A DNA stretch of 64,000 nt. Source: an uncultured Gammaproteobacteria bacterium (GTDB taxonomy: Bacteria; Patescibacteriota; Patescibacteriia; UBA11705; JABHMO01). The number at the start of each line of letters is the position of its first letter. Position 1 is the stretch's first letter. Below the pieces are notes generated by a model, which did no database searches, was not told where the DNA came from, and worked only from the letters and a program-made list of their open reading frames with translations. Where the stretch lies: contig CAZPBK010000001.1 of NCBI GenBank assembly GCA_964584985.1, positions 60,742 to 124,741 of the forward strand, read 5' to 3'. Positions 18,478-43,554 of this stretch are shown piece by piece. The position numbers and the translations under genes are program-made.

Positions 18478-18483
18478 TTTACA

Positions 18484-18930: not shown

Positions 18931-18936
18931 GGTTTA

Positions 18937-18950: not shown

Positions 18951-19007
18951 CTTCTGAAATTTCGGATAAAAAAGTGCTCTGCCTCTACATTATTCTTTGA
19001 TGTATTG

Positions 19008-19031: not shown

Positions 19032-19056
19032 TTGACGTTTTAATTTGGCTCTTTTC

Positions 19057-19209: not shown

Positions 19210-19322
19210 AATTTTGTGATTTTACGATATAATTATACTAAATTTTACACTTAATTTCAATTCTATTCAACCAAAACAAAAGAACGGGCTTTCCCGCTCT
19301 TTTGTTGTTATATCCTGTATTC

Positions 19323-20135: not shown

Positions 20136-20256
20136 AAGCTCAAAATTAATTAAAAATTATTATGTGATTATCTAAAGTTATGCTATCTTCAAATTTATTA
20201 TACCACTTACACCATACAATAAAAAGCCTACAAATATTCAGGTGTGGATAAATATT

Positions 20257-21882: not shown

Positions 21883-21884
21883 CC

Positions 21885-22235: not shown

Positions 22236-22237
22236 AG

Positions 22238-23488: not shown

Positions 23489-23620
23489 ATATTACAGTTT
23501 ATTAGATTATTAGAGCTATTCATTATATAATATACTATCCGCTGTTGACCTTGTCAATTATAATATTATATAATAAAATCAGACAATGTTAAGTAAATTA
23601 ATCTTCAAATAATTTATTTT

Positions 23621-23779
23621 ATGTGTTTCCTGAAAAAAATATTCAAGAAAAAAACCAAGTTAGAAAATTATGATTCTCCCACATCAAACCAAGGCCGTAA
23701 GTCAGAGTCAAAAAAGCACAATGGGAATGATGAAGAAAAGATCAAGGATCGACTTCGCGAATTAGGTTATTTTGAATAA
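23621..23779 (+). CDS. Small ORF (52 aa), candidate only
   Basis: Translates to MCFLKKIFKKKTKLENYDSPTSNQGRKSESKKHNGNDEEKIKDRLRELGYFE. It is the lone plus-strand ORF in a 320-bp AT-rich gap. No SD and no recognisable motif. Confidence 0.2.
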   Translation: MCFLKKIFKKKTKLENYDSPTSNQGRKSESKKHNGNDEEKIKDRLRELGYFE

Positions 23780-23810
23780 AAAATATTATATTTTTTCCTA
23801 AAAACAAGTT

Positions 23811-26189: not shown

Positions 26190-26192
26190 AAA

Positions 26193-27518
26193 TTACTTTT
26201 GTGTTTTTATTTTTTTTATAACCTCTAAAGCCTTTTTTTCTAAAATAAGACTTCCGTTTATGTGCGTTTTTATTTTATTTTTCTCGTTTGGATCATTTTT
26301 CAAATCATAGATAAAAAAATCTTTTACTTCACCTTTGGTTGTTATCTTGGCAATGTATTTTTCATACTCATTCCTAACACTGATTAAAAAAATATTTTTA
26401 TCCTCAATTGACAGGCTAATTATATCACGGTTTTTTTCTTCAACAGAATCTTCTGTTAATAAATCCACCAAACTTTTTCCATCATATTCATTGGCTCCAC
26501 TTCCATTAATCAAATGATCCAAGGTCGGGCATATATCCACCGTACTTACATTTTCAGAGACAATTTTTCTAGAAATTCCGGGACCAACCCAGATAAAAGG
26601 GATTTTTATCAATTCTTCATACAAGTCACTTGTATGTTCAACTTTGCCGTGCTCCAAAAAAGCTTCGCCATGATCCGCCGTAAAGATAAAATGTGTATTG
26701 TTTTTATTTATTCCTTTTTTTTCTAAATCGTGTATAAATTTTTTTATTATATTATTTGATAAATATAAATATTGATTTATGTATAATTTTTTCAATACAC
26801 CTATCTGCTTATTTGAAAAATTTTCCAGAGGCTTAAAGAAAAATAATGAACGGAGAAAAAACCACTTTAGTCTATTGGTAAACTTATTGTGAGAGCTATA
26901 TGGTCCGTGGACATCCATAAAATGCATCCATAAGAAAAAAGGATCCCCTTGTTCTCTTTTTTCTATTACATTTAAGGCGGTTTTTGTCAGTTTATCAGAG
27001 TTTGTATGGCTTAAGTCCAAAAAATAAAAACTAATTAATTTTAAAACCCCCCTTAGAAATTTTAGTTTTTTGGATCGCCTTAATAATCTGATTAATTTCC
27101 CTCTAAACATTTTTTTCTTTGATCTTGTTTGAAAATCATGATAATAACAAAAACCCCTTTCATAGCCAAGACCCTTTATCAGAAAAGGATTAAAATCATT
27201 TAAACCAACTGTGTGGTATCCCTTGTCTTTTAATTTTTCTGCTATTGTTTTTCTTTGATTTGATAATTTAACCGGATGCCAGCTGGTTCCCGGCAAAGGA
27301 TCCCTTATCTCGTTTTCATAAACGCCTGGATATTGACCACTCATGATACTTGGCAAGGAATAGGGTGTTATCGGAGCATTGGAAAATGAGTTTATAAATA
27401 AAGTCCCTTGTTTTGAAAACTCACTTATAAAATCATTATTATTTCTTTCATTATATGCCTTTAAGATATCTGATCGTAAGGCATCAACGGTAATTAAAAT
27501 TATATTTGGTTTTTCCAT
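26193..27518 (-). CDS. Alkaline-phosphatase-superfamily (sulfatase-like) protein lacking the formylglycine Cys/Ser
   Basis: N-terminal metal-binding block ILITVDALRSD. The sulfatase-signature region reads ITPYSLPSIMSGQYP, with Ile at the Cys/Ser (FGly) position and no Arg. Distal motif TADHGEAF. Confidence 0.6.
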   Translation of the reverse strand: MEKPNIILITVDALRSDILKAYNERNNNDFISEFSKQGTLFINSFSNAPITPYSLPSIMSGQYPGVYENEIRDPLPGTSWHPVKLSNQRKTIAEKLKDKGYHTVGLNDFNPFLIKGLGYERGFCYYHDFQTRSKKKMFRGKLIRLLRRSKKLKFLRGVLKLISFYFLDLSHTNSDKLTKTALNVIEKREQGDPFFLWMHFMDVHGPYSSHNKFTNRLKWFFLRSLFFFKPLENFSNKQIGVLKKLYINQYLYLSNNIIKKFIHDLEKKGINKNNTHFIFTADHGEAFLEHGKVEHTSDLYEELIKIPFIWVGPGISRKIVSENVSTVDICPTLDHLINGSGANEYDGKSLVDLLTEDSVEEKNRDIISLSIEDKNIFLISVRNEYEKYIAKITTKGEVKDFFIYDLKNDPNEKNKIKTHINGSLILEKKALEVIKKIKTQK

Positions 27519-27519
27519 A

Positions 27520-28359
27520 TTATTTTACAATTTTTAATAAGGGGACTTTTCTTAGTTCAGGTGCTGAGAGATCGTAATAGTGCAAGTAACTATTATATTC
27601 TCCAAGCAATTCACCGTGGTCTGAAGTAATAAATATAGTTATATTTTGCGGTAGATTATTGATAAGCTTTTCCACATATTTCAAAGCTAGTTTCAAATTG
27701 CCTTCATAGGCTTTTTTAAAATCCTCCTTTGAAAGTTGTTTTTTTCTGATCTTTGAAATAACAGCCTCGTCATTCCCTTCAATGGGATTTTTACTTGAAG
27801 TGATGATACTCGGTTCACCAATCCATGGTCCGTGTGGTTGCATGAACCAAAAAATATTTTTTTTCGAACTATCATAATGCTTTAAAGATTCCTTGTAAAG
27901 TATCTCGGGATGAACAGTATTTAACTTTTTATTCCAACCATAATCCCAAACGTCAATAATATAATCTTTTTTAAAATGGTCTGTTGCTTTATATCCCAAA
28001 ATCTCAATTCCTTGTGAATTTATATGAGGATTTGTAGAAAGTAATTTTATATTTGGATATTTTTTATTAAAGGTTTTTTTGAACCAACCAATTGTGCCAC
28101 TGGCGGGAGAATGAAGAGCTTTTAATTCTCCTTTTAAATGTTTTTTATAGTTTTTTTTAAAATAATCATATCTACAAGCATCCAAAACAATTAGAACATC
28201 CCACTTCTCCTCATTTAAATAGTTCAATTGGCACGAGCCTGTTTTCTTATTAATTAATTTATACAATAAACCAAGAAACAAAAACCTAAAACTACATTTG
28301 CTACGTTTTTGTAACATTTGTTTTAATATAAAAATTAATCTTTTTATGGTTTTTATCAT
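27520..28359 (-). CDS. Second alkaline-phosphatase-superfamily / sulfatase-like protein
   Basis: Motifs LIVLDACRYDYF, TSDHGELLGE and QPHGPW. Confidence 0.5.
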   Translation of the reverse strand: MIKTIKRLIFILKQMLQKRSKCSFRFLFLGLLYKLINKKTGSCQLNYLNEEKWDVLIVLDACRYDYFKKNYKKHLKGELKALHSPASGTIGWFKKTFNKKYPNIKLLSTNPHINSQGIEILGYKATDHFKKDYIIDVWDYGWNKKLNTVHPEILYKESLKHYDSSKKNIFWFMQPHGPWIGEPSIITSSKNPIEGNDEAVISKIRKKQLSKEDFKKAYEGNLKLALKYVEKLINNLPQNITIFITSDHGELLGEYNSYLHYYDLSAPELRKVPLLKIVK

Positions 28360-29051
28360 TTTTTGTTAACAAATTTACAAAACACTGTTGTAAAGCCTAT
28401 CTTATTTTTAAATTCTTGATCAACTTTTTTGTTAAAGTAATTTACAAAAAATTGATCTCTTCGAAATATCCATTTTGATATATATAGATTTAAAACATAA
28501 AAAATTTCCCACCAGGCACCTTTAATAATACTATCCGTTATTTTAAAATTACTTTTTTTTCCTATTTCCTTGATTTTTTTTAATGAATAATGTCTATGGC
28601 CGGTTAACCACCATGCAGGATCAAAAACATTACTGAAAAAGCTTTTATTTGGTGTTGATAAATAAAAAGTCCCGTTTGGCTTTAAAACCCTAGATATTTC
28701 CTTAAACATTTGCCTTTCTGTTTTTTGAGGAATATGTTCAATTACTTCCCAACTGACCACTGTATCAAACTGATTGTCATTAAAAGGTAAACTAAGAGCA
28801 GAGCCTTTAATGAACTTTATTTGAGGATTTTTTATATTTTTTCTTGCAGTTAGTAAATCTTTTTCAGACGGTTCAATTCCTACAACCTTAAAACATTTTT
28901 TGTTTACACAGGCAAGTTCAAACCAGCCGTAACCACAACCAACATCTAAAATACTTTTATTTACCATGTCTGCTTTACTTACAAAGTCTATATTGAATTT
29001 AGTTCTACCGTGCTGTTCAAGTCTTGGCTTTTCATTGACTACATTTTTCAT
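28356..29051 (-). CDS. Class I SAM-dependent methyltransferase
   Basis: Motif I ILDVGCGYGWF, plus post-I acidic and Motif II-like segments. Confidence 0.75.
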   Translation of the reverse strand: MKNVVNEKPRLEQHGRTKFNIDFVSKADMVNKSILDVGCGYGWFELACVNKKCFKVVGIEPSEKDLLTARKNIKNPQIKFIKGSALSLPFNDNQFDTVVSWEVIEHIPQKTERQMFKEISRVLKPNGTFYLSTPNKSFFSNVFDPAWWLTGHRHYSLKKIKEIGKKSNFKITDSIIKGAWWEIFYVLNLYISKWIFRRDQFFVNYFNKKVDQEFKNKIGFTTVFCKFVNKK

Positions 29052-29881
29052 AGATTGGAGTTTACTAAATAATAAGTTCTATTTTCAATAAAATCAACAA
29101 TTTTAAAGCTACTTGAATCAATAATTTTTTCAAATTTTTCTTGATCAATTACATTTTTATGTATTTCCACAAAAATTGACCTTACTCTTTTTTCAAAGAA
29201 ATCAATGGATTTATAAAACACTTTTTCCTCTTCCCCTTCTATATCTATCTTTAATAAATCGATTTTGTAGATTTGGTGTATTTTACAAAATTCTTCAATT
29301 GTATATATTGCAACAAGTTCATTTTTTTTACTTTTGCTTAGGCTGTATGAATCCGGGGAAGCTGATAAATCCAAGTTACCCTTGCCTAAATAGTCTGAAA
29401 TTGCACATTTATATGATTTTATGTTTTTATAATTATTTAATTTCAAATTTTGATTTAATAATTCAAAATTTTGTTTACTGGGTTCCACGGCATAAATTAT
29501 TGGCTTTTTTTGGTATAAATGATTATTCACATAAATTGAAAATAATCCAATGTTCGCTCCAATATCCACGATTATGGGATTATTCGTTGTTGGAAAATAT
29601 TTTTCGGGATATTCAAGATCTGCATTTATTATTACCACTTCACCTAAATCACATGACTTTGTCCTTGCTTTTATCTCTGTTCCATTTCTAAGTTTGTAAA
29701 TCGTATATTGATTTTTGAAAAACCCCAAAAAATCCAAAACCGCTGTTTGAATATTTTTTATTGCTTTTAATGTCAAATAAATTTTTTTTATCATTTGTTT
29801 AATAAATATTTTATTCCAACAACAACCCTTAAAGCAAATAAATTGATTGATAAAAGCGGATGACTTAATAATCGTTTCCAT
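29048..29881 (-). CDS. FkbM-family methyltransferase
   Basis: Motif IVDIGANIGLFSIY with an FkbM-like length of 277 aa. Overlaps neighbours in an operon-like arrangement. Confidence 0.65.
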   Translation of the reverse strand: METIIKSSAFINQFICFKGCCWNKIFIKQMIKKIYLTLKAIKNIQTAVLDFLGFFKNQYTIYKLRNGTEIKARTKSCDLGEVVIINADLEYPEKYFPTTNNPIIVDIGANIGLFSIYVNNHLYQKKPIIYAVEPSKQNFELLNQNLKLNNYKNIKSYKCAISDYLGKGNLDLSASPDSYSLSKSKKNELVAIYTIEEFCKIHQIYKIDLLKIDIEGEEEKVFYKSIDFFEKRVRSIFVEIHKNVIDQEKFEKIIDSSSFKIVDFIENRTYYLVNSNL

Positions 29882-30666
29882 TTACCATTTTCTGTAAAAA
29901 CTCCTAAATACCTATATTTAATTCCTAACTGCTTTTTTACATCAGGATCATCCTTCCCCCATTTTTTTATATATGGTTCAATAGTTGGTACATATTTACT
30001 TTTCTTATTTAAATAAACACCTAATGTTAGCCATTCCTCATGATGATAGATTTTATTTTTCGTAATACTTAATTTATTTGTTATTTCTTTTATCATTTTT
30101 GTTAAATCCCAATCATCCGGAGCAAACGGCATATTGATTTCATCAAACCCACTGACTTGTTCAAAAATATCTTTTTTAAAAACTCTCAAAGCATCAATGC
30201 AAGTTTGGTTATAAAAACTCCTTTCAAAATTTCTGATTTTCCCAAACCAACCTTTTCCCATTACGAACTCAGGAACATATAAAGCATCGAATTGTTGTAT
30301 TTTTTCGGCAATTTCTTGAAAAAGGCCCTTTTCAAAGGTCATATCCGCATCAGGAACAAATAAAATCTCACCATTTGCCTTTGATGCCCCGAAATTCACT
30401 TGTGCGCCGCGAAAGTTTTCCACATTCGTTAGCTTTTTTTCGTTTGCCAAATTATATACTTTATCAATCAAACTGCGAGCTTTTTCGCGTGTTGAATCTT
30501 TTGAATTATTGTCAACCACAATAATCTCCACTCTGTCTTTTGGATAATCAAGAGAATCAATTGAATTAATAATGTTTTTGATATTCTTTTCTTCGTTATA
30601 GGTTGCAATAATTGTTGAAATTAGAGGTAATTTATGCATAGTTGTTATCTTATTTTCTAAAATCAA
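29791..30666 (-). CDS. Glycosyltransferase family 2
   Basis: LISTIIATYNEEKNI, VEIIVVDNNSKD and DADM motifs. Confidence 0.75.
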   Translation of the reverse strand: MILENKITTMHKLPLISTIIATYNEEKNIKNIINSIDSLDYPKDRVEIIVVDNNSKDSTREKARSLIDKVYNLANEKKLTNVENFRGAQVNFGASKANGEILFVPDADMTFEKGLFQEIAEKIQQFDALYVPEFVMGKGWFGKIRNFERSFYNQTCIDALRVFKKDIFEQVSGFDEINMPFAPDDWDLTKMIKEITNKLSITKNKIYHHEEWLTLGVYLNKKSKYVPTIEPYIKKWGKDDPDVKKQLGIKYRYLGVFTENGKWKRLLSHPLLSINLFALRVVVGIKYLLNK

Positions 30667-32119
30667 TTAAATGGCCGAAAAATTTCATACTCGACCTGAA
30701 CAAATATTTTACATCATCAAGGTTTTTGATATTTATAATTTTTCGCCAAATAAATTGCGGGCTTATAAATGATTTATATAAACCTTGAGTTAATTCCTTA
30801 ACATCAGCCGTAGTTAACTCGGATTTCATGACTTGTTCCCTTTGATCGTATCTGTCATAATCAACAAAATTCAGTAATTTTTTTTCTCGGCAATATTTAT
30901 ATAAAGGCGTTCCAGGATAAGGGATAACGACCGTAGCTTGAAGTGTGTCAACATAGCCTTTTTTGAATAATCTTTTAGCCAAATCAACAGTTTTTTTAGC
31001 CTCGGCTTTACTTTCCCATGGATAGCCAATCATAGCCGTAATATGAGGCTCCAATCCTGCCTGCTTACATATTTTTAAATTCGGTTCAATTTCTTCCACC
31101 TTCAAACCTTTTTTAATTTTATCCAAAGTTTCTTGATTGGCTGATTCCAAACCAAAAAGAATAAATCTAAAACCGGCTTTTTTCATTAATTTCCAAGTTT
31201 CAATATTTTTAATTCCATTAATCCTCATGTTACAACTCAAGGTTACTTTTTTATTGAAACCATATTTAATCATTCCTCGGCAAAATTCATATAACCAGTC
31301 CCCGATTGGTAAACTTCCGGAATCTTCCATTATTTCTTTAACTCCAAGATCTATTAGTCTTTTAACTTCGCTCAGAGCTTGTTGAGCTGACATTTTTCTG
31401 AATTTTGAACCAGGGAAAAGAGTTGTCCATGAGCAAAAAGTACATTTCCCCCACCAACAATCTCTACCACTCATTAAATATGAACCTGGTGTATATTTAA
31501 AATTACCATTTTTGTAGGCATAAAGTTTCCATTCGGTCAATTGTCTGTCAATTAAGGGTAATTCTGTCAGCTTATGAGAATGAAAACCATATTCACCGGT
31601 ATTATTTATTAAACTACCTTCTCTATAATAAATTCCCTTTTCCAAACTTGTTGCCTTATCCAAGTGATTAGCAATACTTAATAACAAAAAGTCAAAATCA
31701 CCTGATTTTATTACATAATCTACTTTAGAGTTATTTAGTGATTCTTCCGGCAGAGCTGTGACATGATCTCCCATCAATACAATTTTCAACTTCCAATCTT
31801 CAGTCTTTGATGAAATCTTTTTTAATTTATTTATAATTTGCCAATGCTTTTTTATAACTGGTGTTTTGGTCTCAATCGCGACAAGTTCCGGTTTTTTTTC
31901 AACAATAAAGTCAAACCATTCTTTTTCCGATTGTTCTTTGGCAATTCCATCAGCCCAAAGAACTTCGTGACCATTATTTTTTAATAATGTTGCTGCATAG
32001 GCCGGAATAACAGGATAAATATAAGTGGGACTATTAAACCATTGGAATTGTCTATTTTGGGTAAGAAGTGGAACCCCTTTTTTTGATTCAATTGGAGGAA
32101 AACAAATAGCAACCTTCAT
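30650..32119 (-). CDS. B12-binding-domain radical SAM protein
   Basis: N-terminal cobalamin-binding-like domain. The radical-SAM cluster reads DCWWGKCTFCSW (CxxxCxxC) at ~residue 220. 489 aa. Confidence 0.75.
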   Translation of the reverse strand: MKVAICFPPIESKKGVPLLTQNRQFQWFNSPTYIYPVIPAYAATLLKNNGHEVLWADGIAKEQSEKEWFDFIVEKKPELVAIETKTPVIKKHWQIINKLKKISSKTEDWKLKIVLMGDHVTALPEESLNNSKVDYVIKSGDFDFLLLSIANHLDKATSLEKGIYYREGSLINNTGEYGFHSHKLTELPLIDRQLTEWKLYAYKNGNFKYTPGSYLMSGRDCWWGKCTFCSWTTLFPGSKFRKMSAQQALSEVKRLIDLGVKEIMEDSGSLPIGDWLYEFCRGMIKYGFNKKVTLSCNMRINGIKNIETWKLMKKAGFRFILFGLESANQETLDKIKKGLKVEEIEPNLKICKQAGLEPHITAMIGYPWESKAEAKKTVDLAKRLFKKGYVDTLQATVVIPYPGTPLYKYCREKKLLNFVDYDRYDQREQVMKSELTTADVKELTQGLYKSFISPQFIWRKIINIKNLDDVKYLFRSSMKFFGHLIDFRK

Positions 32120-32120
32120 A

Positions 32121-33092
32121 TTATCTTAATTTGCTAGTTAAATTTTTTACGCACAAACCTTTTAAAAAATTGTAGCCATAACTTAAATGAGTACCTAATA
32201 TATAGGGTACTACTCCAAAACTGATTTTCCAATCTTTTTCATATTTTCTGATTTGCCAAACAGCAATCACAAGACCAATTAGATACACTAACCAACCAAA
32301 TATATATAGATTTAAAATTAATTTTGAAATAAGACTTCCAATCAGTCCGATCACAACAAATACAAGAAATAAGCTGGGAATAAAATATTTTAATTTAAGG
32401 GATGTTTTTGGAAATTTTTTAGCAAAATAACCTCTATGCAAGCCATAAGCACCTACCTGCTTCAAATGTTTTAAAAAACCTTTTCTTCTGTGATGAAAAA
32501 CAATTAGCTCCGGATTGTATAATATTTTCTTTCCAGTATTTATTAAGTCCAGACACATTAAGGTATCTTCACCTGGCCAATATTTTGATTTGAATCCACC
32601 GATATTTTCAAAATCAACCTTTTTTACTGAGAGATTAACACTGGGCCAATCATCAACAAATTTTTTTTTACCAACTGACACATATCTTTCGGCACATCCG
32701 CCTGAAAAACCGCTCAAAAAAACTGCACCAGATAGTTTTTGGCCAAAACTATCATCTTTAGGTGTTATAGCCGGACCGGCTACAGCACCAAGGTCAGAAT
32801 TTTTAAAAGATTTATCTAACTTTTCCAAAAAATCCTCTTTTGGGTAAGCATCATCATCAATAAATATTAAAATTTCGCCTTGAGCATGATTCATAGCCAT
32901 ACTTCTCTTCATGGCCGGCCCCCCCGGACCACTTGATATTTGTTTTGTTTTTGGCCAATTTTCACTATTGCTTCGGTCCGGAAAAATTAATATTTCATAA
33001 TCACTTCTTTCAATTTTAAGAATGTTCGGAACGGCTTCCCGAATATAATTATTTATTTCCTTAACTGGAATTATAAAACTATATTTAATCAT
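32121..33092 (-). CDS. Glycosyltransferase family 2 with C-terminal transmembrane anchors
   Basis: YSFIIPVKEINNY, FIDDDAYP (DxD) and a GxGGxxxKR-like segment. The last ~90 aa form two TM helices. Confidence 0.65.
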   Translation of the reverse strand: MIKYSFIIPVKEINNYIREAVPNILKIERSDYEILIFPDRSNSENWPKTKQISSGPGGPAMKRSMAMNHAQGEILIFIDDDAYPKEDFLEKLDKSFKNSDLGAVAGPAITPKDDSFGQKLSGAVFLSGFSGGCAERYVSVGKKKFVDDWPSVNLSVKKVDFENIGGFKSKYWPGEDTLMCLDLINTGKKILYNPELIVFHHRRKGFLKHLKQVGAYGLHRGYFAKKFPKTSLKLKYFIPSLFLVFVVIGLIGSLISKLILNLYIFGWLVYLIGLVIAVWQIRKYEKDWKISFGVVPYILGTHLSYGYNFLKGLCVKNLTSKLR

Positions 33093-34389
33093 GTTTTTTT
33101 CCTATACAATAATATTTAAAACCCAATTCATTCATTTTCTTGGGGTTATGAGCATTTCTGCCATCAATAAACACATTGCCCTTCATTGATTCTTTAATTC
33201 TTTTTAAATCAATTTGTTTGAATTCATCCCAATCAGTACATAAAATAATTGAATCAACATTTTTTGCTGCTTGATAGGGACATTCAAAATAATTTATATT
33301 CGGATAGTGTTTTTGAAAATTATTTAAGGCCGCTGGGTCAAATACATTTACTTTGATCTCATGATCCAAAAGATTTTGAACTAATTCCAGTGATGGAGCA
33401 AACCTTATGTCATCAGTATTTGGTTTAAAGGATACCCCCCAAATGGCTACGGATAAATTATTAATTTCCTTATTATAAGCCTTTGATAGTTTTTGAAATA
33501 GTGCCTTTTTCATTTTATTATTCAATAATTCTACTTTTTCCAATATTTCAAAATTTTCATTATTCTGTTTACCGATATGGATCAAGGCTTGAACATCTTT
33601 GGGAAAACAAGAACCTCCATAACCACAACCAGCATCTAAAAAGGCGTTCCGACCAATTCTTTTATCAAGCTTCATTCCTTGAGAAACTTTGTTCACATCA
33701 GCCCCGGCCTTTTCACAGATATTGGCAATTGAATTAATAAAAGAAATGCTTGTAGCCAAAAAGGCGTTTGAAGCGTATTTTATCATTTCTGCACTTTTTA
33801 AATCAGTTGTAACAATCGGACAATTTAACGGCTGATATAATTTTTTCATTATACTCAACGCTTTATAGTCTTTACTATCACAACCGAGGACAACTCTATC
33901 GGAATTAAGAAAATCATCAACTGCAGTCCCTTCACGCAAAAATTCCGGATTTGAAACAACATCAAAAGAACCATTATATTGTTCTTGTATTATTTGGGTT
34001 ACTAAATCACCTGTACCGACCGGAACTGTACTTTTATTAACAATTATTGTATATTTTTTTATATTTTGACCAATACTTTTGGCAACATCTTTGATAAACG
34101 AAAGATCGCACTCTCCGTTTTCTTTTGGCGGTGTACCAACGGCAATAAAAACCATATCCACCTCATCAAAAAATGTTTGAATATTATTTTCAAAAAACAG
34201 CCTCTTTTCTTTGATGTTTTTACAAACCATTTCCTCCAATCCCGGCTCATAAATGGGAATATTCCCCTTTTGCAATAAGGCAATTTTATTTTTGTCTACA
34301 TCAATACAAGTTACATTATTGCCTAAATTCGCTAAGCATGTTCCAGTAACTAAGCCAACATAGCCTGTGCCAATTACAGCAATTTTCAT
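33085..34389 (-). CDS. ugd: UDP-glucose 6-dehydrogenase
   Basis: Rossmann motif MKIAVIGTGYVGLVTG and catalytic block GYGGSCFPKD. 434 aa. Confidence 0.9.
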   Translation of the reverse strand: MKIAVIGTGYVGLVTGTCLANLGNNVTCIDVDKNKIALLQKGNIPIYEPGLEEMVCKNIKEKRLFFENNIQTFFDEVDMVFIAVGTPPKENGECDLSFIKDVAKSIGQNIKKYTIIVNKSTVPVGTGDLVTQIIQEQYNGSFDVVSNPEFLREGTAVDDFLNSDRVVLGCDSKDYKALSIMKKLYQPLNCPIVTTDLKSAEMIKYASNAFLATSISFINSIANICEKAGADVNKVSQGMKLDKRIGRNAFLDAGCGYGGSCFPKDVQALIHIGKQNNENFEILEKVELLNNKMKKALFQKLSKAYNKEINNLSVAIWGVSFKPNTDDIRFAPSLELVQNLLDHEIKVNVFDPAALNNFQKHYPNINYFECPYQAAKNVDSIILCTDWDEFKQIDLKRIKESMKGNVFIDGRNAHNPKKMNELGFKYYCIGKKHD

Positions 34390-34395
34390 AAATTA

Positions 34396-35334
34396 TTATA
34401 TTACTTTTCTGAAATATTTTATAGTTTTTTGTAAACCTTGTTCTAGTGCTATTCCCGGTTGCCAATTTAATTTTTCCTTAGCTAAGCCGATATCTGGCTT
34501 TCTTTGTTTGGGATCGTCCTTAGGCAATTCCTTATATATAATTTGGCTAGTGGAACCGGGAACTAAATCCAATATTTTCTCTGCCAATTGTTTAATAGTA
34601 AATTCATCGGGATTTCCCAGGTTAACAGGCCCAATAAAATTATTTTTATTATTCATCATCAATAGCATACCATTTATTAAGTCATCCACATATTGGAACG
34701 CCCTGGTTTGTCCACCATCACCAAAAATTGTAATCGGTTGATTCTTTAATGCTTGAACGATAAAATTTGAAACAACTCGACCATCATTCGGATGCATATT
34801 AGGACCATAAGTATTAAAAATTCTAATAATACGAATATCAACTTTATTTGAACGATGGTAATCCATAAACAAACATTCAGCTGCTCTTTTTCCTTCATCA
34901 TAGCAGGAACGAATTCCAATAGGGTTTACATTTCCCCAATATATTTCTGATTGAGGATGAACATCAGGATCGCCATATACCTCCGATGTTGATGCTTGCA
35001 GAATTTTTGCTTTTACCCTTTTAGCTAAATCCAACATGTTAATGGCACCAGATACTGATGTTTTAATTGTTTTGATTGGATTATACTGGTAATGCACCGG
35101 GGAAGCCGGACAGGCTAGGTTATAAATTTGATCGACTTCTAATATTATAGGTTCGACAATATCGTGTCTTATAAATTCAAAATTTCTATTATTTAATAAG
35201 TCTTTTATATTATCTTTTGTTCCCGTAAAACAATTATCAAGGCAAATGACTTTATTTTTCTGTTCTAATAATTTTTTACATAAATGTGAACCTATAAAAC
35301 CCGCGCCTCCTGTTACTAAAATGGTTTTGTTCAT
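34396..35334 (-). CDS. uxs: UDP-glucuronate decarboxylase (UDP-xylose synthase family)
   Basis: [22 protein letters not shown] and CYDEGKR motifs. Collinear with UXS1/ArnA-decarboxylase-type SDR enzymes. 312 aa. Confidence 0.8.
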
Positions 35335-36287
35335 AGATTTTTTGATCTTTCTTTAATTATATACATTGGTCGATTTATTACTTCTCTTTGGATGTTCCCT
35401 ATATATAAGGCTATTAAACCGAGACAACTCAAAACTATACCAATAAAAAATATTATTAAAACAGCTAGTTGAGCCGGTCCGGAAAAGTTAAAAGACCACG
35501 CAGGATAGAGATATTGTGTTACCAGCATGAATAAACCAATCGTCCCGGAAATTAAAATTATAAAAATACCTAAATACCCCGCTAACTTAAGTGGCAATAA
35601 GCTATTAGAAACAAATGAAGACAAGGCCAGTTTAGCTAGCTTTAAATAGCTATAACCTGGTTGTCCGCTTTTTCTTGGTCGAGCTTGAAAATTAACATAA
35701 GCCTTATTAAAACCAATCCAATTCAGTAATCCTCGAGTAATTCTTTGCTTTTCAGTTAACTTGTTGAATTCTTTAATAATTTTTTTGTCTATTAAACGAA
35801 AATCAGTTGAGTGGGGTTTTATTTTTGTCTCACTGATTAAATTTATAAGTTTATAATAAAATATTGCTCCCAATTTCCTTATTAAGCTTTCTCCAACATT
35901 AGCATCTCGAACTCCAATAACCATATCATTTCCTTGTTCCCATTTATCGATGAATTTATTTATTGTTTCCGGCGGATGTTGAAGATCCGCATCTATAATA
36001 ACGGCCGCTTGTCCGTTGACATGATGCAATCCCGCACTAGTGGCGATTTCTTTACCAAAATTTCTAGAAAAAGAAATATAATTAACATTTACATCTTTCT
36101 TTGCCAATTCTTTTATAGTGGTTAAACTCGTATCCGTACTTCCGTCGTCAACAAAAATGAACTCAAAGTTTTTATTCAATTCTTTTAATTCGTTGTATAA
36201 TTCTCTTATTGTTTCCTGTTCATTATAGACAGGAATAACTATTGAAATTCTAAACATTTTTTTTATTTCTATATAAATTTGGATCAA
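35331..36287 (-). CDS. GT2 polyprenyl-phosphate glycosyltransferase (DPM1/GtrB/ArnC-like) with two C-terminal TM helices
   Basis: [23 protein letters not shown] and DADLQHPP motifs, plus a C-terminal membrane anchor. Confidence 0.75.
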
Positions 36288-36828
36288 TTACCTCCTTCAT
36301 TTTGTTGGAGTTAAGAAAAACATCAAGAAAGCTGATAATTTTATTGATATTTTCATCGGCATTAACAAAAAAATCATTGTATGAAACGCTTAAGACATCA
36401 AAATTATCTTTTTTGTTCAACCAAGCCTTAACTTCTTCTAAATGCTTTTCATACAAGGTTTTTATTTCCTTATCAGAAATGCTACTTTCTTTTTTTCTAT
36501 GAGCCAACATCTTATTTTGAGATCTTATTATTTCCTCCAAATCTCTTTCCATGAATATAACTTTATATCTGTAATTTTTGGGTAAATCATAAAGTAACAT
36601 TGAAATTATTTTCACAACCCTTCCCTTGGCTCGCTTCAACCATAATGAATCCTTTTTTGTTTTTTTTACTTTTTCAAACTCATAATACCCTTTTGGATTG
36701 TCTTTATCAGGTTTTCTAATATTGTCAACCAAAGATTTCAAACCTCCAGCTTCCAACATGTTCATCATCAAAGAGGTTCCGGACCTAGGTAGGCCGGAAA
36801 CTATAATTATCGGATTTTCATTTGACAT
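36250..36828 (-). CDS. PAPS-dependent sulfotransferase (Sulfotransfer_3-like)
   Basis: 5'-PSB motif IIIVSGLPRSGTSLMMNML. 192 aa, a small cytosolic sulfotransferase size. Context includes PAPS synthesis genes. Confidence 0.65.
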   Translation of the reverse strand: MSNENPIIIVSGLPRSGTSLMMNMLEAGGLKSLVDNIRKPDKDNPKGYYEFEKVKKTKKDSLWLKRAKGRVVKIISMLLYDLPKNYRYKVIFMERDLEEIIRSQNKMLAHRKKESSISDKEIKTLYEKHLEEVKAWLNKKDNFDVLSVSYNDFFVNADENINKIISFLDVFLNSNKMKEVIDPNLYRNKKNV

Positions 36829-38105
36829 ATATTTTTGTTAGTAATGAAAAAATGTAAAATAAGCAACAAAAGAGAAAAGACCACAGAAATCAAATATACA
36901 TTCAAAATTTGTGAAATATTGTCATGGAAGTTTAATAATAACAACACTTCCAATACTACGGAACCGACCAAAACATATGTAAAATTTGTTTTTCTTATAG
37001 ATAGAGCAAATAAAGAAATTAAATTAATAATAGAATAAACTGTAAATACTACAGCAATCTTCCATAGTAATGGTTGAATGGAAATATATTCCGCTCCCAA
37101 AATCAAATTAATAATCCTATCTGGGAACAAAAAATAAACAAGAGTAATAACTCCGGAAACAAAAGAGACTACAAGTAGGGCGATCTTGAAGACTTTAAGA
37201 TTACTGATTCTCATAATTTTATTTTTTGCAGCGATGGGAAACAAAACCACTGGGACTGAACTGGTGGCAAAAAATATTATTTTCCCAAATAAAACTAAAC
37301 CGGCATATAAACCTGCATTCTTTTGATCTAAAAAATGTTTGGCGAACAAAACATCAATGTTATATATAAAAACCAAACATAACGATACAATAAAGACCGG
37401 CTTCATATATGAAAATAAGCTTTTCCAATCAATATTTGTTTCTTCATTCTTTAAGACATCGCGCCGAGAAAACCAAGCATAGACCATTATTATAAATATC
37501 ACAGAGGCAAGAGGGATTGCAATCATTGCCCCCAATATGCCTAAACCTATTTTGACCAAAAAAACACCTATTAACAACTTTGAAAAGACCATGACTATTT
37601 GACTGAAAGATAATCTGACAAACTGTTGCAACCCTCTCATGAAACCCAATCCAACGGGCACCAGAAATGAGAACAAAAAATAACCGGACAAAACAATTAA
37701 GGGGGCTATTGAATCCAAGTTTAGCAATTTTTTTACTTGGCTGGAAAACAATAAAAATACAATTGATAAAAAAACTCCATAAAACGAAGCCTTTTTTATA
37801 ATTTGTTTTAAAAAACTAAAAATCTTGTTTTTCTGATTTTTTCCTGTTAAATCAGCAACTGTCTTTGAAACAACATGATTTATTGTTTGTGTAGGTACTG
37901 CTAAAATGAGAGTGATTGATAACAAGGCAGCCAAAAGTCCGAAATCCTCAGGGCCCAACATCCGACCCATAATTATTTGAAATAAATAATTACCAAAGCC
38001 TACAATTAAAGACCCCACAAAAACCATTAAGCTTCCGCTAAGTAACTTATTTTTTTTTATACTGGAGAGGCTTAATTCTCTAAATGAAAAATGCCGGTTA
38101 CTCAT
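36807..38105 (-). CDS. wzx: Wzx-type polysaccharide flippase (MOP superfamily)
   Basis: 432 aa with ~12 TM helices, typical of polysaccharide biosynthesis protein flippases. Confidence 0.65.
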   Translation of the reverse strand: MSNRHFSFRELSLSSIKKNKLLSGSLMVFVGSLIVGFGNYLFQIIMGRMLGPEDFGLLAALLSITLILAVPTQTINHVVSKTVADLTGKNQKNKIFSFLKQIIKKASFYGVFLSIVFLLFSSQVKKLLNLDSIAPLIVLSGYFLFSFLVPVGLGFMRGLQQFVRLSFSQIVMVFSKLLIGVFLVKIGLGILGAMIAIPLASVIFIIMVYAWFSRRDVLKNEETNIDWKSLFSYMKPVFIVSLCLVFIYNIDVLFAKHFLDQKNAGLYAGLVLFGKIIFFATSSVPVVLFPIAAKNKIMRISNLKVFKIALLVVSFVSGVITLVYFLFPDRIINLILGAEYISIQPLLWKIAVVFTVYSIINLISLFALSIRKTNFTYVLVGSVVLEVLLLLNFHDNISQILNVYLISVVFSLLLLILHFFITNKNICQMKIR

Positions 38106-38106
38106 A

Positions 38107-38895
38107 CTAAATCTTAGCTAATTCTTTAATAACATTATAATGGATTTTCCCATTACTAACAACAAAACCGTTATAATTCATGGGATCTCTTTTATTGTAA
38201 ACAATGTTATCACCAAACATATCCGTAAAAACACCACCCGCCTCTTTAACAATAATATCAGAGGCGCAAACATCCCATTCACCGGTTTTATCACTGGTAT
38301 TTAGATATAAATCACCGAATTGGTCGGCTATTTTAGCGGATTTAAGTCCGGCACTACCGCAAGTTTGCATTTTATCTATACTTAACTTTTTAGCCAGATT
38401 CATTTCCCTATCCAAAAGATGATTGCGACTACGCAATAAAATGATTTCCGAATAATCTTTTTTATCGGAAACTTGTAATTTAACGGTTTGACCGCGATGC
38501 TCCATATAAGCTCCTTGGCCGGCTGACGCCCAAAAAAGTTTATCCTCGGCCGGCTGATAAACCGCCCCCAAAACCGGACGACCATTTTGACTTAAACCGA
38601 TCATAATGGAAAATTCGCCGGTCTGCTGAATAAAATCCTTGGTTCCGTCCAAAGGATCAATTATCCAAACCTTTTCCTGATACAACCGCTTATTTTCTTT
38701 ATCGGTTTCCTCGGACAAAATACCGTAATTCAATTGTTTTAGTTTTTGCAAAATAACCTTTTCCGAAGCTAAATCAGCTTGAGTAACCGGACTGTCCCCG
38801 CCTTTATCCCGGATATTTAAATCTTGACCGTAAAATTCCATAACTTTTTTTCCGGCTTGTTTTATGGTACTCTTCAATATACTTAATTCCGACAT
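38107..38895 (-). CDS. cysQ: 3'(2'),5'-bisphosphate nucleotidase CysQ-type (inositol monophosphatase family)
   Basis: IMPase-family motifs EETDKE, WIIDPLDGTKDF and WDVCASDIIVKEAGG. Chosen as CysQ rather than SuhB from the PAPS-gene context. Confidence 0.65.
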   Translation of the reverse strand: MSELSILKSTIKQAGKKVMEFYGQDLNIRDKGGDSPVTQADLASEKVILQKLKQLNYGILSEETDKENKRLYQEKVWIIDPLDGTKDFIQQTGEFSIMIGLSQNGRPVLGAVYQPAEDKLFWASAGQGAYMEHRGQTVKLQVSDKKDYSEIILLRSRNHLLDREMNLAKKLSIDKMQTCGSAGLKSAKIADQFGDLYLNTSDKTGEWDVCASDIIVKEAGGVFTDMFGDNIVYNKRDPMNYNGFVVSNGKIHYNVIKELAKI

Positions 38896-38978
38896 ATTGA
38901 TCTACTATTAGTTGACAGATGTCTTTATTATGTTAATATTTCTAGAACAGGTTATTTTAAAAATCCACAGGAGGAAAA

Positions 38979-39401
38979 ATGAAAAACATTTTGAACAACG
39001 GAAGGTTAAGGTGTTCGGGAAGATCATGGCAATTAGTTGAAAGCGACAAGTCCTGTATTCCTGGCGGTAAAAAAAACGGTGATCATTTGATTATTCTTTT
39101 TTCAGACAAAAATAGATATTGTAGTCGCGAAGAACTGGGAGAACTCTATGTAATAGCCGAACAACTGGCTACGGAATACGCACATCAGATCAATCTTTAC
39201 CGTATTGTTAAAAACGGCAAAGGCCTGCAATTTCGTAAAGGCTTTCATCTTCATCTCATCCTTCCGAAAAAAAGAAATTTCATTGCTCGTTGTGTTGAAC
39301 CAAGCGTTTCTATGATAAAACTGAGAAAATGGCAAGGTGAGAAGGTCTTTAAGTATGTTTTGAACAAATTACTGACCAGAGGACAACAGCAAAAAAGATA
39401 A
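38979..39401 (+). CDS. Divergent HIT-superfamily-like protein (tentative)
   Basis: A strong SD sits upstream (cacaggagg-N6-ATG). A HIT-like core reads GDHLIILFSDK...YRIVKNGKGLQFRKGFHLHLILP; this is an HxHxI motif rather than HxHxH. Elevated GC. Lone plus-strand gene inside the cysQ-cysNC array. Confidence 0.35.
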   Translation: MKNILNNGRLRCSGRSWQLVESDKSCIPGGKKNGDHLIILFSDKNRYCSREELGELYVIAEQLATEYAHQINLYRIVKNGKGLQFRKGFHLHLILPKKRNFIARCVEPSVSMIKLRKWQGEKVFKYVLNKLLTRGQQQKR

Positions 39402-39457
39402 TATCTCCATCCCTTCAAAAACTTCCAACCTCAAAAAGGTGAGTCACACTCGCCTTT

Positions 39458-41269
39458 TTATTTTTGTAAAAACTTATTTTTATACAAATAATCAATAATC
39501 TGCTCCACACATTCATCAACTGTATTTTCATGAGTTTGACAACAAATATGAGGATTGTCCGGTGCTTCATATGGAGCGGAAATACCGGTAAAATTATCAA
39601 TTTCACCATTAAGAGCTTTTTTATACAAACCTTTGACATCCCGTTTAATACAAATATCCAAAGGGGCGTCAACAAAAACCTCCAAAAATTTATCAGTATG
39701 AAAAGAGGCTGTTTTCCTATGCTCTTTATAAGGTGAAATAAAAGTGGCCAAAACCAAAACATCGTGTTTGCTAAGCAAGCCGGCCACATAAGAAACTCGT
39801 TCAATATTTTTATCGCGATCCTCTTTGGAAAATCCCAAATCTCTGGTTAAAGCCTGTCGCACAATGTCACCGTCCAATCGCTCGCAACGAACCCCCATGT
39901 TTTTCAAAACCACATATAATTTATCAGCAATAGTACTTTTGCCCGATCCGGAAAGTCCGGTAAACCACATCACACCTCCTTTATTGTCTTTTACCCGGTG
40001 AATATAACCACCGGTTTCAGCATTTTTTACTTTTTTATTTATTATACCCGCACCCACGGTATTTTTACTTATTGGATCAATAATAATAAAATTTCCGGTA
40101 TGACGATTTTTTTGGTATGGATCAAAAGACAATGAATCCTGTGTGCGAATGTAAACTCGCCCCATTTCATTTAAATAAAGTTTTGATTTTTCCTCACGAT
40201 GCAAATCATCCATGTTTATTCTGTATCTTAATCTTTCCACAAAACCATTGCTCGTTCTGCTGGTGTGCTTGATAATATAATTTTTATTTTCTGCCAAAGG
40301 CTCATCGCTCATCCAACAAACAGTGGCCTCAAAATTATCTGAAACCTCAGACATATTTTGTTCTTTAACTATCATATCTCCTCGACTAATATCCAGTTCG
40401 TCCTCCAAAGAAAGCAAAGCGGACAAAGGATTAAAAGCATAATCTTGTCTGGAACCGTTAACATAAATCTCCTTTATTGAAGATTTATTATTGGCCGGTA
40501 AGATTCTGACTCGATCACCGCGCCGAATAATTCCACCCTCAATTTTTCCGGTATAACCACGGAAATCTTGATTCGGACGGACAACACTCTGCACCGGGAA
40601 ACGAAAATCAATCAAATTTCTATCAGCGGTTATTTGAATATTTTCCAAATAATCCAAAATTGTTCGTCCGTTATACCAAGGCATATTATGACCACGATCC
40701 ACCACCATATCTCCTTTAAGCGCGGAAACCGGTGTAAATTGTAAATCTTTTATATTTAGTTTGGAACAAAAATCAGAAAAATCTTGTTTAATTTTATTAA
40801 AAATCTTTTGATCATAATCCACTAAATCCATTTTATTGACTACAACCAAAACATGCGGAATACCCAAAAGAGCGGCTATGAATAAATGTCTTTTAGATTG
40901 AATAAGTAAGCCTTTTCTGGCATCACACAAAATCAAAGCCAAATTTGAGTTAGAAGCCCCGGTCATCATGTTTCTGGTATATTGTTCATGCCCCGGTACA
41001 TCGGCAATAATAAAACGCCGTTTGGGAGTGGAAAAATAACGATAAGCCACATCAATGGTTATCCCTTGTTCCCTTTCCGCTTTTAAGCCGTCCAAAAGAA
41101 AAGCCAAATCAACTTCCTTGCCCACTTTATCACAAGTTTTTTTTACTGATAAATACTGATCCTCAAAAATAGAATGACAATCATGAAGCATTCTTCCAAT
41201 CAGGGTTGATTTTCCGTCATCCACGCTCCCGGCGGTGCTTATTCTCAAAAGTTCAATATCATTTTGCAT
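39458..41269 (-). CDS. cysNC: Bifunctional sulfate adenylyltransferase subunit 1 / adenylylsulfate kinase (CysN-CysC fusion)
   Basis: N-terminal GTPase motif STAGSVDDGKSTLIGRL and DVPGHEQY. C-terminal APS kinase P-loop FTGLSGSGKSTIA and LDGD. 603 aa. Confidence 0.9.
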   Translation of the reverse strand: MQNDIELLRISTAGSVDDGKSTLIGRMLHDCHSIFEDQYLSVKKTCDKVGKEVDLAFLLDGLKAEREQGITIDVAYRYFSTPKRRFIIADVPGHEQYTRNMMTGASNSNLALILCDARKGLLIQSKRHLFIAALLGIPHVLVVVNKMDLVDYDQKIFNKIKQDFSDFCSKLNIKDLQFTPVSALKGDMVVDRGHNMPWYNGRTILDYLENIQITADRNLIDFRFPVQSVVRPNQDFRGYTGKIEGGIIRRGDRVRILPANNKSSIKEIYVNGSRQDYAFNPLSALLSLEDELDISRGDMIVKEQNMSEVSDNFEATVCWMSDEPLAENKNYIIKHTSRTSNGFVERLRYRINMDDLHREEKSKLYLNEMGRVYIRTQDSLSFDPYQKNRHTGNFIIIDPISKNTVGAGIINKKVKNAETGGYIHRVKDNKGGVMWFTGLSGSGKSTIADKLYVVLKNMGVRCERLDGDIVRQALTRDLGFSKEDRDKNIERVSYVAGLLSKHDVLVLATFISPYKEHRKTASFHTDKFLEVFVDAPLDICIKRDVKGLYKKALNGEIDNFTGISAPYEAPDNPHICCQTHENTVDECVEQIIDYLYKNKFLQK

Positions 41270-41284
41270 ATTTAAAAATCATTT

Positions 41285-42187
41285 TTAAAAATAACCGGAT
41301 TGTTTTTTATCCTCCATGGAACTATCACCACTATGATCAATTATTCTATTTTCCCTCTCGGATTTTTTAGCCAATAAAACTTCTTTTAAAATATCTTCCA
41401 CCGTGGAGGCCGAAGATTCAACCGCTCCGGTACAAGGCACACAGCCAAGGGATCTGAATCGGCACATTACTTCTCCCACTTTTTCATCTTTCTTTACCCT
41501 AGTGGATTCTTCCACCGGCACCAAAAGTCCATTTCTTCTAACCACCTTTCTTTTTTTGGCAAAATAAAGTGGTACTATTTCAATATTTTCTTCTTTAATA
41601 TAATTCCAAACATCCGACTCGGTCCAATTGGAAAGAGGAAAAACACGCATGGTTTCTTGTTTATTTAAATGCGAATTAAAATTATGCCAAAGTTCGGGGC
41701 GCTGATTTTTAGGATCCCACTTGCCCATCGAATTACGATGGGAATAAACTCGCTCTTTGGCTCTGGATTTTTCTTCATCTCGCCGAGCACCGCCTATGGC
41801 CGCATCAAATCCATGCTTTTTTATAGAGTCAAGCAAAGCTTGAGTTTTTAAATAACTACAACAAGTATCTACGCCGTGAATAGCCGGATGCAGACCTTGT
41901 TTGAATTTTTCATGCTGTTCCACAATTAATTTTACGCCTACCTTTTTAGTATAATAATCTCTAAAGTCAGTCATTTGTTTTGGTTTGTAGCCGGTATCAA
42001 TATGCATTAAAGGAAAAGGCACTTTTCCCGGATAAAAAGCTTTGCGCGCCAAATGCAATAGACAAGAAGAATCCTTGCCAACGGAATACAGCATTACCGG
42101 ATTTTTAAACTCCGCCGCCACTTCCCTAATTATGTAAATCGCCTCAGACTCTAACTCCTTTATATGCGACAATTTATAATTTTCCAT
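41285..42187 (-). CDS. cysD: Sulfate adenylyltransferase subunit 2
   Basis: PAPS-reductase-fold N-terminus [29 protein letters not shown]. 300 aa. Directly adjacent to cysNC. Confidence 0.9.
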
Positions 42188-42268
42188 AGTTTTAAATTAT
42201 TCTTCCAATCACTATATTCTTTATACATATATTCTCATATTACCAATTTCCAAACTTATTGTAAAAAC

Positions 42269-43036
42269 TTATCCACAGTTTTCTTTATTCCAATTCTTAA
42301 CAGTCTTTAATAGTAAATTTCTAACCTTGTCGACATTATTGTTCATTCTATCGACAATCAACTCCCAAGTAACGAATTTTTCATTCTTTTTCCAACAATC
42401 AAAATCAGTTACCATAGCAATTGACTGGTATGGTATTTTTAACTCATTGGCCAAAATTACTTCCGGTACAGTGGACATATTAATAACCTGGCCACCCAAT
42501 TTTTGGAACATAAGACTTTCAGCTCTGGTTGAAAACCTGGGGCCTTCAATAGTTATTGCGGTTCCATTATCATGAAATTTTAAATCCAATTCTTTAGCTG
42601 ATAATATTAATTTTTTTCTAAGTTTCCGGTCAAACGGTTCGGCCATGGGAGTATGCACCACTTTTTTTTCATGGTAAGTCAAATTTCTATGTTTGGTAAA
42701 ATCAATAAATTGGTCTAAAAAAACAAATTCTCCCGGCCTAATGTTTTCTTGCAAGCTACCACAGGCAGTCGTGGCCAAAATTGCCTGACACCCTTGATCT
42801 TTAAGTGCCTCGACATTTGCACGGTAAGGCACCATGGTTGGCATAATAGAATGATTTTTCCCGTGGCGAGGTAAAATTACCACTTCAATGTTTTTAATTT
42901 TTCCAACAATCAAATCATCCGACGGCCAACCATAAGAAGTTTTGGATTTTATTGTTTGATAATTTTCCAGTATTTGCGGATCATCCAATCCCGACCCGCC
43001 GATTATTCCGATTTTCATATTTTTTATTAATCCCAT
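42269..43036 (-). CDS. mtnP: S-methyl-5'-thioadenosine phosphorylase (purine nucleoside phosphorylase family)
   Basis: IGIIGGSGL, LPRHGKNH and TIEGPRFSTRAES motifs. Confidence 0.8.
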   Translation of the reverse strand: MGLIKNMKIGIIGGSGLDDPQILENYQTIKSKTSYGWPSDDLIVGKIKNIEVVILPRHGKNHSIMPTMVPYRANVEALKDQGCQAILATTACGSLQENIRPGEFVFLDQFIDFTKHRNLTYHEKKVVHTPMAEPFDRKLRKKLILSAKELDLKFHDNGTAITIEGPRFSTRAESLMFQKLGGQVINMSTVPEVILANELKIPYQSIAMVTDFDCWKKNEKFVTWELIVDRMNNNVDKVRNLLLKTVKNWNKENCG

Positions 43037-43554
43037 TCATAGTCATAACTGACCAAAGAATGGATATTATATTTTTTTAATCTTTCGCTTCCGCCCAAAA
43101 AGGGCAAATCAATAATTAAACTGACTCCGACCACCTCGGCTTTTAACTTTTCCACCAATTCAATGGTCGCTCCCAAGGTGCCACCGGTAGCCAAAAGATC
43201 ATCAACAATTAAAATTTTTTGCCCCGCTTTTATAGTATCTTTATGCATAGCCACACCGTCAGATCCATATTCTTTTTCATATACAGCTTCAACGGTTTTA
43301 TACGGCAATTTCCCTTTTTTTCTAACCAAGGAAACGCCCAAACCCAGTTTATAAGCAATCACCGTTCCCAACAAAAATCCACGAGCATCTATTACCGCTA
43401 TTTTATCAATTTTTGTCCCGGAAAAAGGTCTAATCATTTGATCAATAACCTGTTTAAAGGTTGGTCCGTCTTGTAAAAGAGTGGTAATATCCTTGAAATT
43501 TACACCCTTTTCAGGCCAATCGGAAACTTCCCTAATTTTAGATTTTAAATCCAT
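43027..43554 (-). CDS. apt: Adenine phosphoribosyltransferase
   Basis: PRTase motif ILIVDDLLATGGT and the Apt-type flanking sequence. 175 aa. Confidence 0.9.
   Translation of the reverse strand: MDLKSKIREVSDWPEKGVNFKDITTLLQDGPTFKQVIDQMIRPFSGTKIDKIAVIDARGFLLGTVIAYKLGLGVSLVRKKGKLPYKTVEAVYEKEYGSDGVAMHKDTIKAGQKILIVDDLLATGGTLGATIELVEKLKAEVVGVSLIIDLPFLGGSERLKKYNIHSLVSYDYEWD

Follow-up and report, generated by a model that had tools for sequence, protein, structure and literature searches.

A divergent HIT-fold protein family encoded beside CysQ and PAPS-synthesis genes in Patescibacteria

HIT proteins and sulfonucleotides

To our knowledge, the textbook bacterial sulfate-activation module contains no dedicated enzyme for degrading APS or PAPS, and the only HIT proteins that we know to hydrolyze APS, in each case as a side activity, are the eukaryotic Fhit, Hint4 and DcpS. 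APS inhibits the sulfurylase and the kinase of this pathway, PAP inhibits sulfotransferases, and Patescibacteria depend on nucleotide salvage.

Fhit is an adenylylsulfate sulfohydrolase that works via a covalent His-nucleotidyl intermediate, and Hint4 and DcpS catalyze both hydrolysis and phosphorolysis of APS (PMC4613722). The initial annotation of the gene described here drew on this action of HIT proteins on APS, which is documented for all three proteins. As reported through PMC4613722, the APS-cleaving HIT proteins turn APS into AMP or, when phosphate is present, into ADP (2010, FEBS Lett 584:93), and PAPS was not used by Fhit in ammonolysis (PMC4613722). These functional precedents for the reaction proposed here are eukaryotic and carry canonical triads; no gene linkage with CysQ is described for them in PMC4613722.

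An APS-cleaving enzyme of bacteria is APS:phosphate adenylyltransferase (as cited in PMC8232776). The GalT branch, represented by the Ap4A phosphorylase of M. tuberculosis (3ano) and by APAT, an ‘ADP sulfurylase’ (Bruser et al. 2000, as cited in PMC8232776), carries Gln at the third triad position. Enzymes of this branch are larger or internally duplicated, whereas the protein described below is a single domain of 140 aa; APAT, as PMC8232776 presents it, serves dissimilatory sulfur oxidation, in contrast to the sulfotransferase-pathway context of the present gene.

The HIT-like gene and its surroundings

Within the window, that is, the whole stretch of 64,000 nucleotides that was analyzed, ORF calling on the letters identified an ATG-started ORF at 38979..39401 on the plus strand, with a product of 140 aa that NCBI lists as HMB26352.1, ‘hypothetical protein’, from a Patescibacteria group bacterium. 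It lies, as originally described, between cysQ and cysNC, and it fills part of the 562-bp gap between these two genes, in which an Rfam search of both strands found neither a riboswitch nor an sRNA. The gene is the sole non-nested plus-strand ORF in a minus-strand array of about 32 kb (11576..43554), of which 27 kb lie on the cysQ side; its isolation on the plus strand, first noted for an array of about 27 kb, therefore holds for non-nested ORFs.

On one side, cysQ (38107..38895, minus strand) is transcribed divergently from the HIT-like gene and is the most constant neighbor of the family. It encodes a CysQ-like 3'(2'),5'-bisphosphate nucleotidase of the Inositol_P family (Pfam Inositol_P, 1e-56), an assignment that, judged by sequence profile, is secure at the family level. 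The best NCBIfam model is TIGR01331 (CysQ), with 196.5 bits, under the cut-off of 228.8; the same model was best, and likewise below cut-off, for all partner phosphatases tested, including those of loci L050 (210.3 bits) and L028 (181 bits). On the other side, and convergent with the HIT-like gene, lies the gene for a bifunctional CysN-CysC, the ATP sulfurylase large subunit fused to APS kinase (39458..41269, minus strand; NF004035, 804 bits, above cut-off; Pfam GTP_EFTU and APS_kinase), followed by that for CysD, the ATP sulfurylase small subunit (41285..42187, minus strand; NF003587 and TIGR02039, above cut-off). A sulfotransferase that would consume PAPS is encoded at 36250..36828 on the minus strand (Pfam Sulfotransfer_3 and Sulfotransfer_1), inside the polysaccharide gene array that lies downstream.

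The stretch 27520-43554 (minus strand) amounts to a full sulfated-glycan toolkit in one array of a Patescibacteria genome. Its sulfur and nucleotide genes encode a phosphoribosyltransferase, MTAP, CysD, CysNC, CysQ and the sulfotransferase, and its glycan genes a Wzx-type flippase, several GT2 glycosyltransferases, an epimerase/dehydratase and a UDP-glucose dehydrogenase; a B12-radical SAM enzyme and methyltransferases are also encoded. In the related locus L009 a MTAP homologue is likewise present, 4 kb past CysD. Near the sulfotransferase gene, the mechanically called ORF 35331-36287 (minus strand) starts at a TTG after an AGGAGG and shares 38 nt with the sulfotransferase gene; its true start, and with it the significance of the AGGAGG, is uncertain because in public copies of the locus the gene is called with 308 aa rather than 318.

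The HIT-like gene has expression signals of its own. A Shine-Dalgarno sequence AGGAGG lies at 38969..38974, 4 nt upstream of the ATG, as the first reading of the sequence had it. A putative sigma-70-like promoter was found at 38912..38939 on the plus strand (TTGACA, 16 nt, TG-extended TAATAT), predicted by consensus match alone (10 of 12 positions, plus the TG before the -10 box), inside the 83-bp divergent region shared with cysQ. Beyond the stop codon, an intrinsic terminator predicted on the plus strand at 39433..39459, a hairpin whose 12-pair stem has an A run on one side and a T run on the other, appears placed to end both the HIT-like gene on the plus strand and the convergent cysNC on the minus strand; it can serve cysNC (stop at 39458) as well because of the symmetry of the A and T runs. 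With promoter-like site, SD and terminator, the HIT-like gene is therefore, on paper, a complete monocistronic unit.

Many other genes of the window are preceded by a TATAAT box that ends 6-10 nt before the start codon, with no SD, as upstream of 1701-2270 (minus strand), 6006 (plus), 8291 (plus), 10208 (plus) and 54894-56594 (minus); this pattern suggests that leaderless mRNAs may be widespread. Elsewhere, the 2.6 kb at 56595-59223 hold no convincing long ORF except overlapping TTG-start ORFs on both strands, and contain a tRNA-Thr gene at 57880-57955 on the minus strand.

A rare family with a HIT fold

Taken alone, the window protein gave no useful match in Pfam, NCBIfam or, with phmmer, the PDB, two weak NCBIfam matches being meaningless. 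Word-indexed homology searches were similarly poor, returning only a 99% identical copy with the protein itself and just three proteins with the family profile. An exhaustive phmmer search of 1.84 billion representatives (E<=1e-3) recovered 25 further proteins (26 clusters including the window protein), mostly of about 110 aa and 28-43% identical. No source checked gives a protein name to these relatives of HMB26352.1, and the family is, as seen so far, rare, unnamed and derived from Patescibacteria-type contigs. Three of the relatives, P0017, P0022 and P0025 (233-272 aa), have two domains in tandem. These double HIT-like domains, at locus L082 and on 2-kb contigs, are reminiscent of the internally duplicated GalT-type HIT enzymes.

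Over the 32 domains of the family, G34, H36 and H92 are invariant, H90 is present in 31, residues R75, N79, G80, S22, P96 and V106 are near-invariant, and R86 is common. Such a pattern of conservation across so much divergence shows that the ORF is a real protein-coding gene.

The HIT-like core proposed in the initial annotation is supported by profile and by predicted structure. The curated profile of the HIT family, Pfam PF01230, did not match the window protein at E<=10; five of the 26 family members matched it weakly and below threshold (best E=0.002), so that the family does not reach the gathering threshold. The family profile searched against the PDB, however, matched HIT proteins almost exclusively, led by HinT (E=7.8e-4) and followed by Hint2 and Fhit, and it also matched the CDP-diacylglycerol pyrophosphatase Cdh. 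The profile check originally suggested has thus failed with the single sequence against Pfam and succeeded with the family profile against the PDB.

With the 26-sequence alignment, AF2 modeled the window protein as a monomer with a pLDDT of 88.7 and a pTM of 0.74, against a pLDDT of 37 from the single sequence alone. The model consists of a beta-hairpin, strand 34-41, helix 50-67, strands 75-77 and 90-96, and a C-terminal helix 108-139, and the top 50 Foldseek matches to it were all Hint or Fhit structures; model and fold search together give the window protein the alpha+beta HIT fold. The PDB profile matches and the AF2 and Foldseek results therefore support the HIT assignment at the fold level, despite the missed Pfam threshold.

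Among named HIT proteins, the Hint branch (E. coli HinT, 3n1s; human HINT1 and HINT2) provides the best sequence-profile matches (E=7.8e-4 to 0.03) and top Foldseek matches (TM 0.45-0.6). It has an equivalent succession of elements (strand, helix, ‘YR..N’ strand, His strand), with equal N-to-His spacing in the ungapped register discussed below. Unlike the window protein, Hint enzymes, which are phosphoramidases and acyl-AMP hydrolases, possess all three histidines and the GQ motif, and unlike them the family misses the curated HIT threshold. The Fhit/Ap3A hydrolase branch (human Fhit, 7p8p; P. falciparum Ap3A hydrolase, 5cs2) shows identities of only about 10-14%. In contrast to these proteins, the window protein lacks one triad histidine and has no Pfam HIT match, the N-terminal hairpin of the family has its own S-R-K-[KS] loop, ‘NGPG...R’ stands in place of ‘N.G..GQ’, and the protein comes from a bacterium (Patescibacteria), where a PAPS locus encodes it.

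The histidine motif

The string GFHLHLILP was read at the outset as an HxHxI variant of the histidine triad. The string itself is present at 39240..39266 on the plus strand (residues G88-F-H90-L-H92-L-I94-L-P96), on strand 90-96, and the family consensus at residues 88-96 is H-F-H-I-H-I-I-L-P; the HxHxI reading corresponds to just one of two alignments. In ungapped alignments (three by HMMER, and hhalign to EcHinT), H90 takes the place of the first histidine, H92 that of the nucleophile and I94 that of the third, and N79 stands as far from the histidines as it does in HinT. A permissive hhalign alignment with gaps against three HIT sequences (probability 14.6%) instead puts position 88 first, H90 at the nucleophile and H92 third. 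Read in this way, the consensus H-F-H-I-H-I-I matches H-phi-H-phi-H-phi-phi perfectly, as do 19 of the 32 domains, and the window protein is without the first histidine only (G88). The window protein may thus be read either as HxHxI, with I94 at the third histidine, or as xxHxH, with G88 at the first, and in either register it has only two of the three triad histidines. As aligned, the nucleophile position is nevertheless filled by a conserved histidine in both cases, H92 (32 of 32 domains) or H90 (31 of 32).

The His36 codon lies at 39084..39086 on the plus strand, and the residue, found in all 32 domains, stands at the start of strand 34-41. It is probably the equivalent of the conserved histidine in the ‘xH-phi-L-V-I-P’ strand of HIT proteins (His51 of HINT1), its alignment with His39 of HinT coming from a low-confidence hhalign only, while HMMER puts H36 one residue off. 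The idea of a basic loop residue in place of the ribose-binding Asp of Hint, which would permit recognition of a 3'-phosphate, was dropped, since the N-terminal alignment has no confidence and, at this site, the window protein itself carries Asp.

The H-x-H-x-Q motif of the GalT branch is absent from the family. In the ungapped register the third position is I in 17 domains, M in 7, V in 5, L in 2 and K in 1, and is never Q; with I94 at this position in the window protein, catalysis could be weak. This composition, which counts as hydrophobic, fits with a weak or inactive HIT-fold protein that would bind nucleotides, sense APS, PAP or PAPS and, through protein-protein contact, modulate either CysQ or the sulfation pathway, and such a role would accord as well with the basic C-terminal helix 108-139, unique to the window protein and modeled with lower confidence, and with the promoter-like site and strong SD, which suggest separate control of the gene. 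We consider a sensor of this kind quite improbable: the near-invariant pair of histidines, together with H36, N79/G80 and R75, is retained across sequences only 23-41% identical, as expected of a preserved active site, and the catalytic pair is canonical in the gapped register.

Genomic neighborhoods of the family

The initial annotation had made a link with sulfation depend on whether homologues co-occur with cysNC in related genomes. Relatives at 31-41% identity were found beside CysQ, CysNC or CysC, which favors a functional link. The arrangement of the window recurs at the locus of P0003, on a 55-kb contig with different glycosyltransferases, where the order is Inositol_P (minus strand), the family gene (plus), CysNC (minus) and CysD (minus); P0003 is 37-40% identical to the window protein, and its neighbors are 56.5% (CysQ), 65.7% (CysNC) and 56.1% (CysD) identical to those of the window, as compared with about 37% for the family protein itself. 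The gene for P0002 (38-41% identical to the window protein) is divergent from a CysQ-like gene, and that for P0012 has the C-terminus of a convergent CysC (57% identity) on one side and a weak CysQ N-terminus on the other. The window, P0002, P0003 and P0012 may form a group with one inherited arrangement, and many of the contigs are short. In a Ca. Saccharibacteria MAG (L028), the family gene is directly downstream of CysQ on the same strand. The gene for P0024 (L050) is convergent on Sat-CysC-CysQ, where the ATP sulfurylase is of the Sat type and not homologous to CysDN.

CysQ and/or CysC adjoin the family gene in six of 11 informative lineages, a set that leaves out four further contigs that were too short. 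The linked lineages display three orientations and two non-homologous ATP sulfurylases, and a rough NJ tree places the linked members on three or more branches. A search for related loci with a narrow family alignment gave no genome match. A degenerate DNA motif scan, sifted with the family HMM, yielded mostly chance matches, one of 24 genome loci and four to five of 40 metagenome loci being true; in the chance-match loci, kept as a control, no CysQ-like gene occurred (0 of 59 loci, 408 kb). The link with CysQ and CysC is not universal, because three of the 11 lineages (P0005, P0014 and L077) have no evident sulfur-related neighbor. Two other members have different partners: the gene for P0006 follows a NUDIX gene, and that for P0010 (L083, 6101-10069) has a type I phosphodiesterase/nucleotide pyrophosphatase gene (PF01663) on one side and a sulfatase gene (PF00884 with SGSH_C) on the other. 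The P0010 locus, on a groundwater contig, is a glycosyltransferase locus and offers a sulfate-ester and nucleotide context without CysQ.

These exceptions bear on the view that the protein is an active HIT enzyme with a substrate other than a sulfonucleotide, either a Hint-like nucleoside phosphoramidase or acyl-adenylate hydrolase, or an Ap(n)A hydrolase, with the CysQ link reflecting shared adenine-nucleotide salvage, as both enzymes would yield AMP. The NUDIX and pyrophosphatase/sulfatase neighbors and the three lineages outside a sulfur context agree with it, as do the best fold matches, which are Ap3A hydrolase/Fhit and Hint enzymes, and the MTAP and phosphoribosyltransferase genes just past CysD in the window. 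The adjacency is, however, specific to PAPS-pathway genes (CysQ, CysC, CysNC and Sat) in the six linked lineages, and it outlasts the exchange of one sulfurylase type for another; generic salvage enzymes would not be expected to follow the module in this manner, and we regard this alternative as unlikely.

The family is a conserved genomic partner of a CysQ-type PAP phosphatase and of PAPS-synthesis genes. The window protein is very probably a real HIT-fold protein that is functionally coupled to these genes.

Native or foreign origin

The gene had been described as foreign-looking and inserted, and a recent acquisition between cysQ and cysNC unrelated to sulfation had been offered as the alternative to a role in the pathway. 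Several traits appear to agree with this. The gene is on the opposite strand; it has an AGGAGG in a genome poor in SD sequences, the claim that native genes lack an SD being confirmed by 49 of 57 window genes without an SD-like word and only three with AGGAGG; and its product diverges faster than those of its neighbors. Its synonymous codon usage, the check proposed at the outset, is mildly atypical (length-calibrated z=-2.3, p~0.014, second-lowest of 56 genes) through a surplus of C/G-ending codons, and this is not a strand effect because other plus-strand genes score normally.

The elevated GC reported at first was not upheld. With a value of 0.374, the ORF is ordinary in GC when set beside the average over genes (0.347 +/- 0.037; z=0.7; GC3 z=0.5), and it equals cysQ (0.376), cysNC (0.365) and cysD (0.386). 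A repeat scan detected no direct or inverted repeats bracketing the gene and no insertion scars, and searches with the protein for phage (PHROGs) and defense (PADLOC) matches were negative. At other loci, 10 of 12 family genes have an SD-like word in front of them; the SD is therefore typical of the family and does not signal a recent arrival. The gene occupies the same site in the same orientation in genomes where CysQ, CysNC and CysD are only 56-66% identical and the family protein about 37%, and its linkage with CysQ recurs in other orientations and on other branches. A recent foreign insertion is thus largely refuted and highly improbable; only the SD and the mild deviation in codon usage look unusual. 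The gene is native and evolves fast, and its function is tied to the CysQ/PAPS module. Eight public contigs of the locus differ by about 0.03% and show a single, synonymous SNP in the HIT-like ORF, a strain comparison that has no power because the divergence is so low.

A better foreign-gene candidate than the HIT-like ORF is a second free-standing plus-strand orphan gene at 43642-44490 (282 aa), which has the same AGGAGGAAAAA-ATG leader. At 0.441, its GC ranks among the highest in the window, no other gene departs further in codon usage (length-calibrated z=-5.6), and its product has no match in Pfam, NCBIfam or PADLOC; the N-terminus (…LCLGNLVGFGPQP…) is reminiscent of what we take to be a metallophosphoesterase motif with degenerate metal ligands.

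A possible role in sulfonucleotide turnover

By analogy with the known HIT enzymes, the favored role for the protein, to which we would give a little less than an even chance, is that of a His-nucleophile adenylyl-sulfate hydrolase or phosphorylase working alongside CysQ on a sulfonucleotide substrate. The catalytic activity, substrate and physiological role that we infer would be as follows. H92 or H90, depending on the register, would attack the alpha-phosphate of APS, and possibly of PAPS; sulfate would leave and a covalent AMP-His intermediate would form, to be resolved by water to AMP or by phosphate to ADP. Together with CysQ, which would convert PAP to AMP and PAPS to APS, the enzyme could clear inhibitory sulfonucleotide by-products of the sulfotransferase pathway and give adenylate back to a cell whose own biosynthetic capacity is small. 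As the most constant partner is CysQ and not CysNC, the substrate could be a 3'-phosphorylated nucleotide or another compound related to CysQ, and not necessarily APS.

HIT enzymes and their side activities on APS are known; the novelty here lies in a HIT clade that profiles miss, whose triad and N-terminal loop are altered and whose genes are fixed beside CysQ in bacteria of the candidate phyla radiation. A broader proposal, which we put forward only tentatively as a possibility rather short of even, is that the family represents a new HIT branch for sulfonucleotide turnover, a bacterial APS (or PAPS) sulfohydrolase or phosphorylase that would form with CysQ a two-enzyme unit for clearing by-products and recycling adenylate, its altered triad and basic S-R-K loop being tuned to a sulfate leaving group or to a 3'-phosphate.

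Concluding remarks

Should the function prove different, a clean annotation remains, namely a new, divergent HIT family and the correction of the gene to a native one. If the proposal is true, a function would be assigned to a ‘hypothetical’ family invisible to Pfam and NCBIfam, and a small enzyme would become available for managing inhibition by APS and PAP in engineered sulfation systems. It would also add an extra step of control or recycling to PAPS metabolism, and would help to explain how episymbionts with reduced genomes afford sulfated surface glycans.
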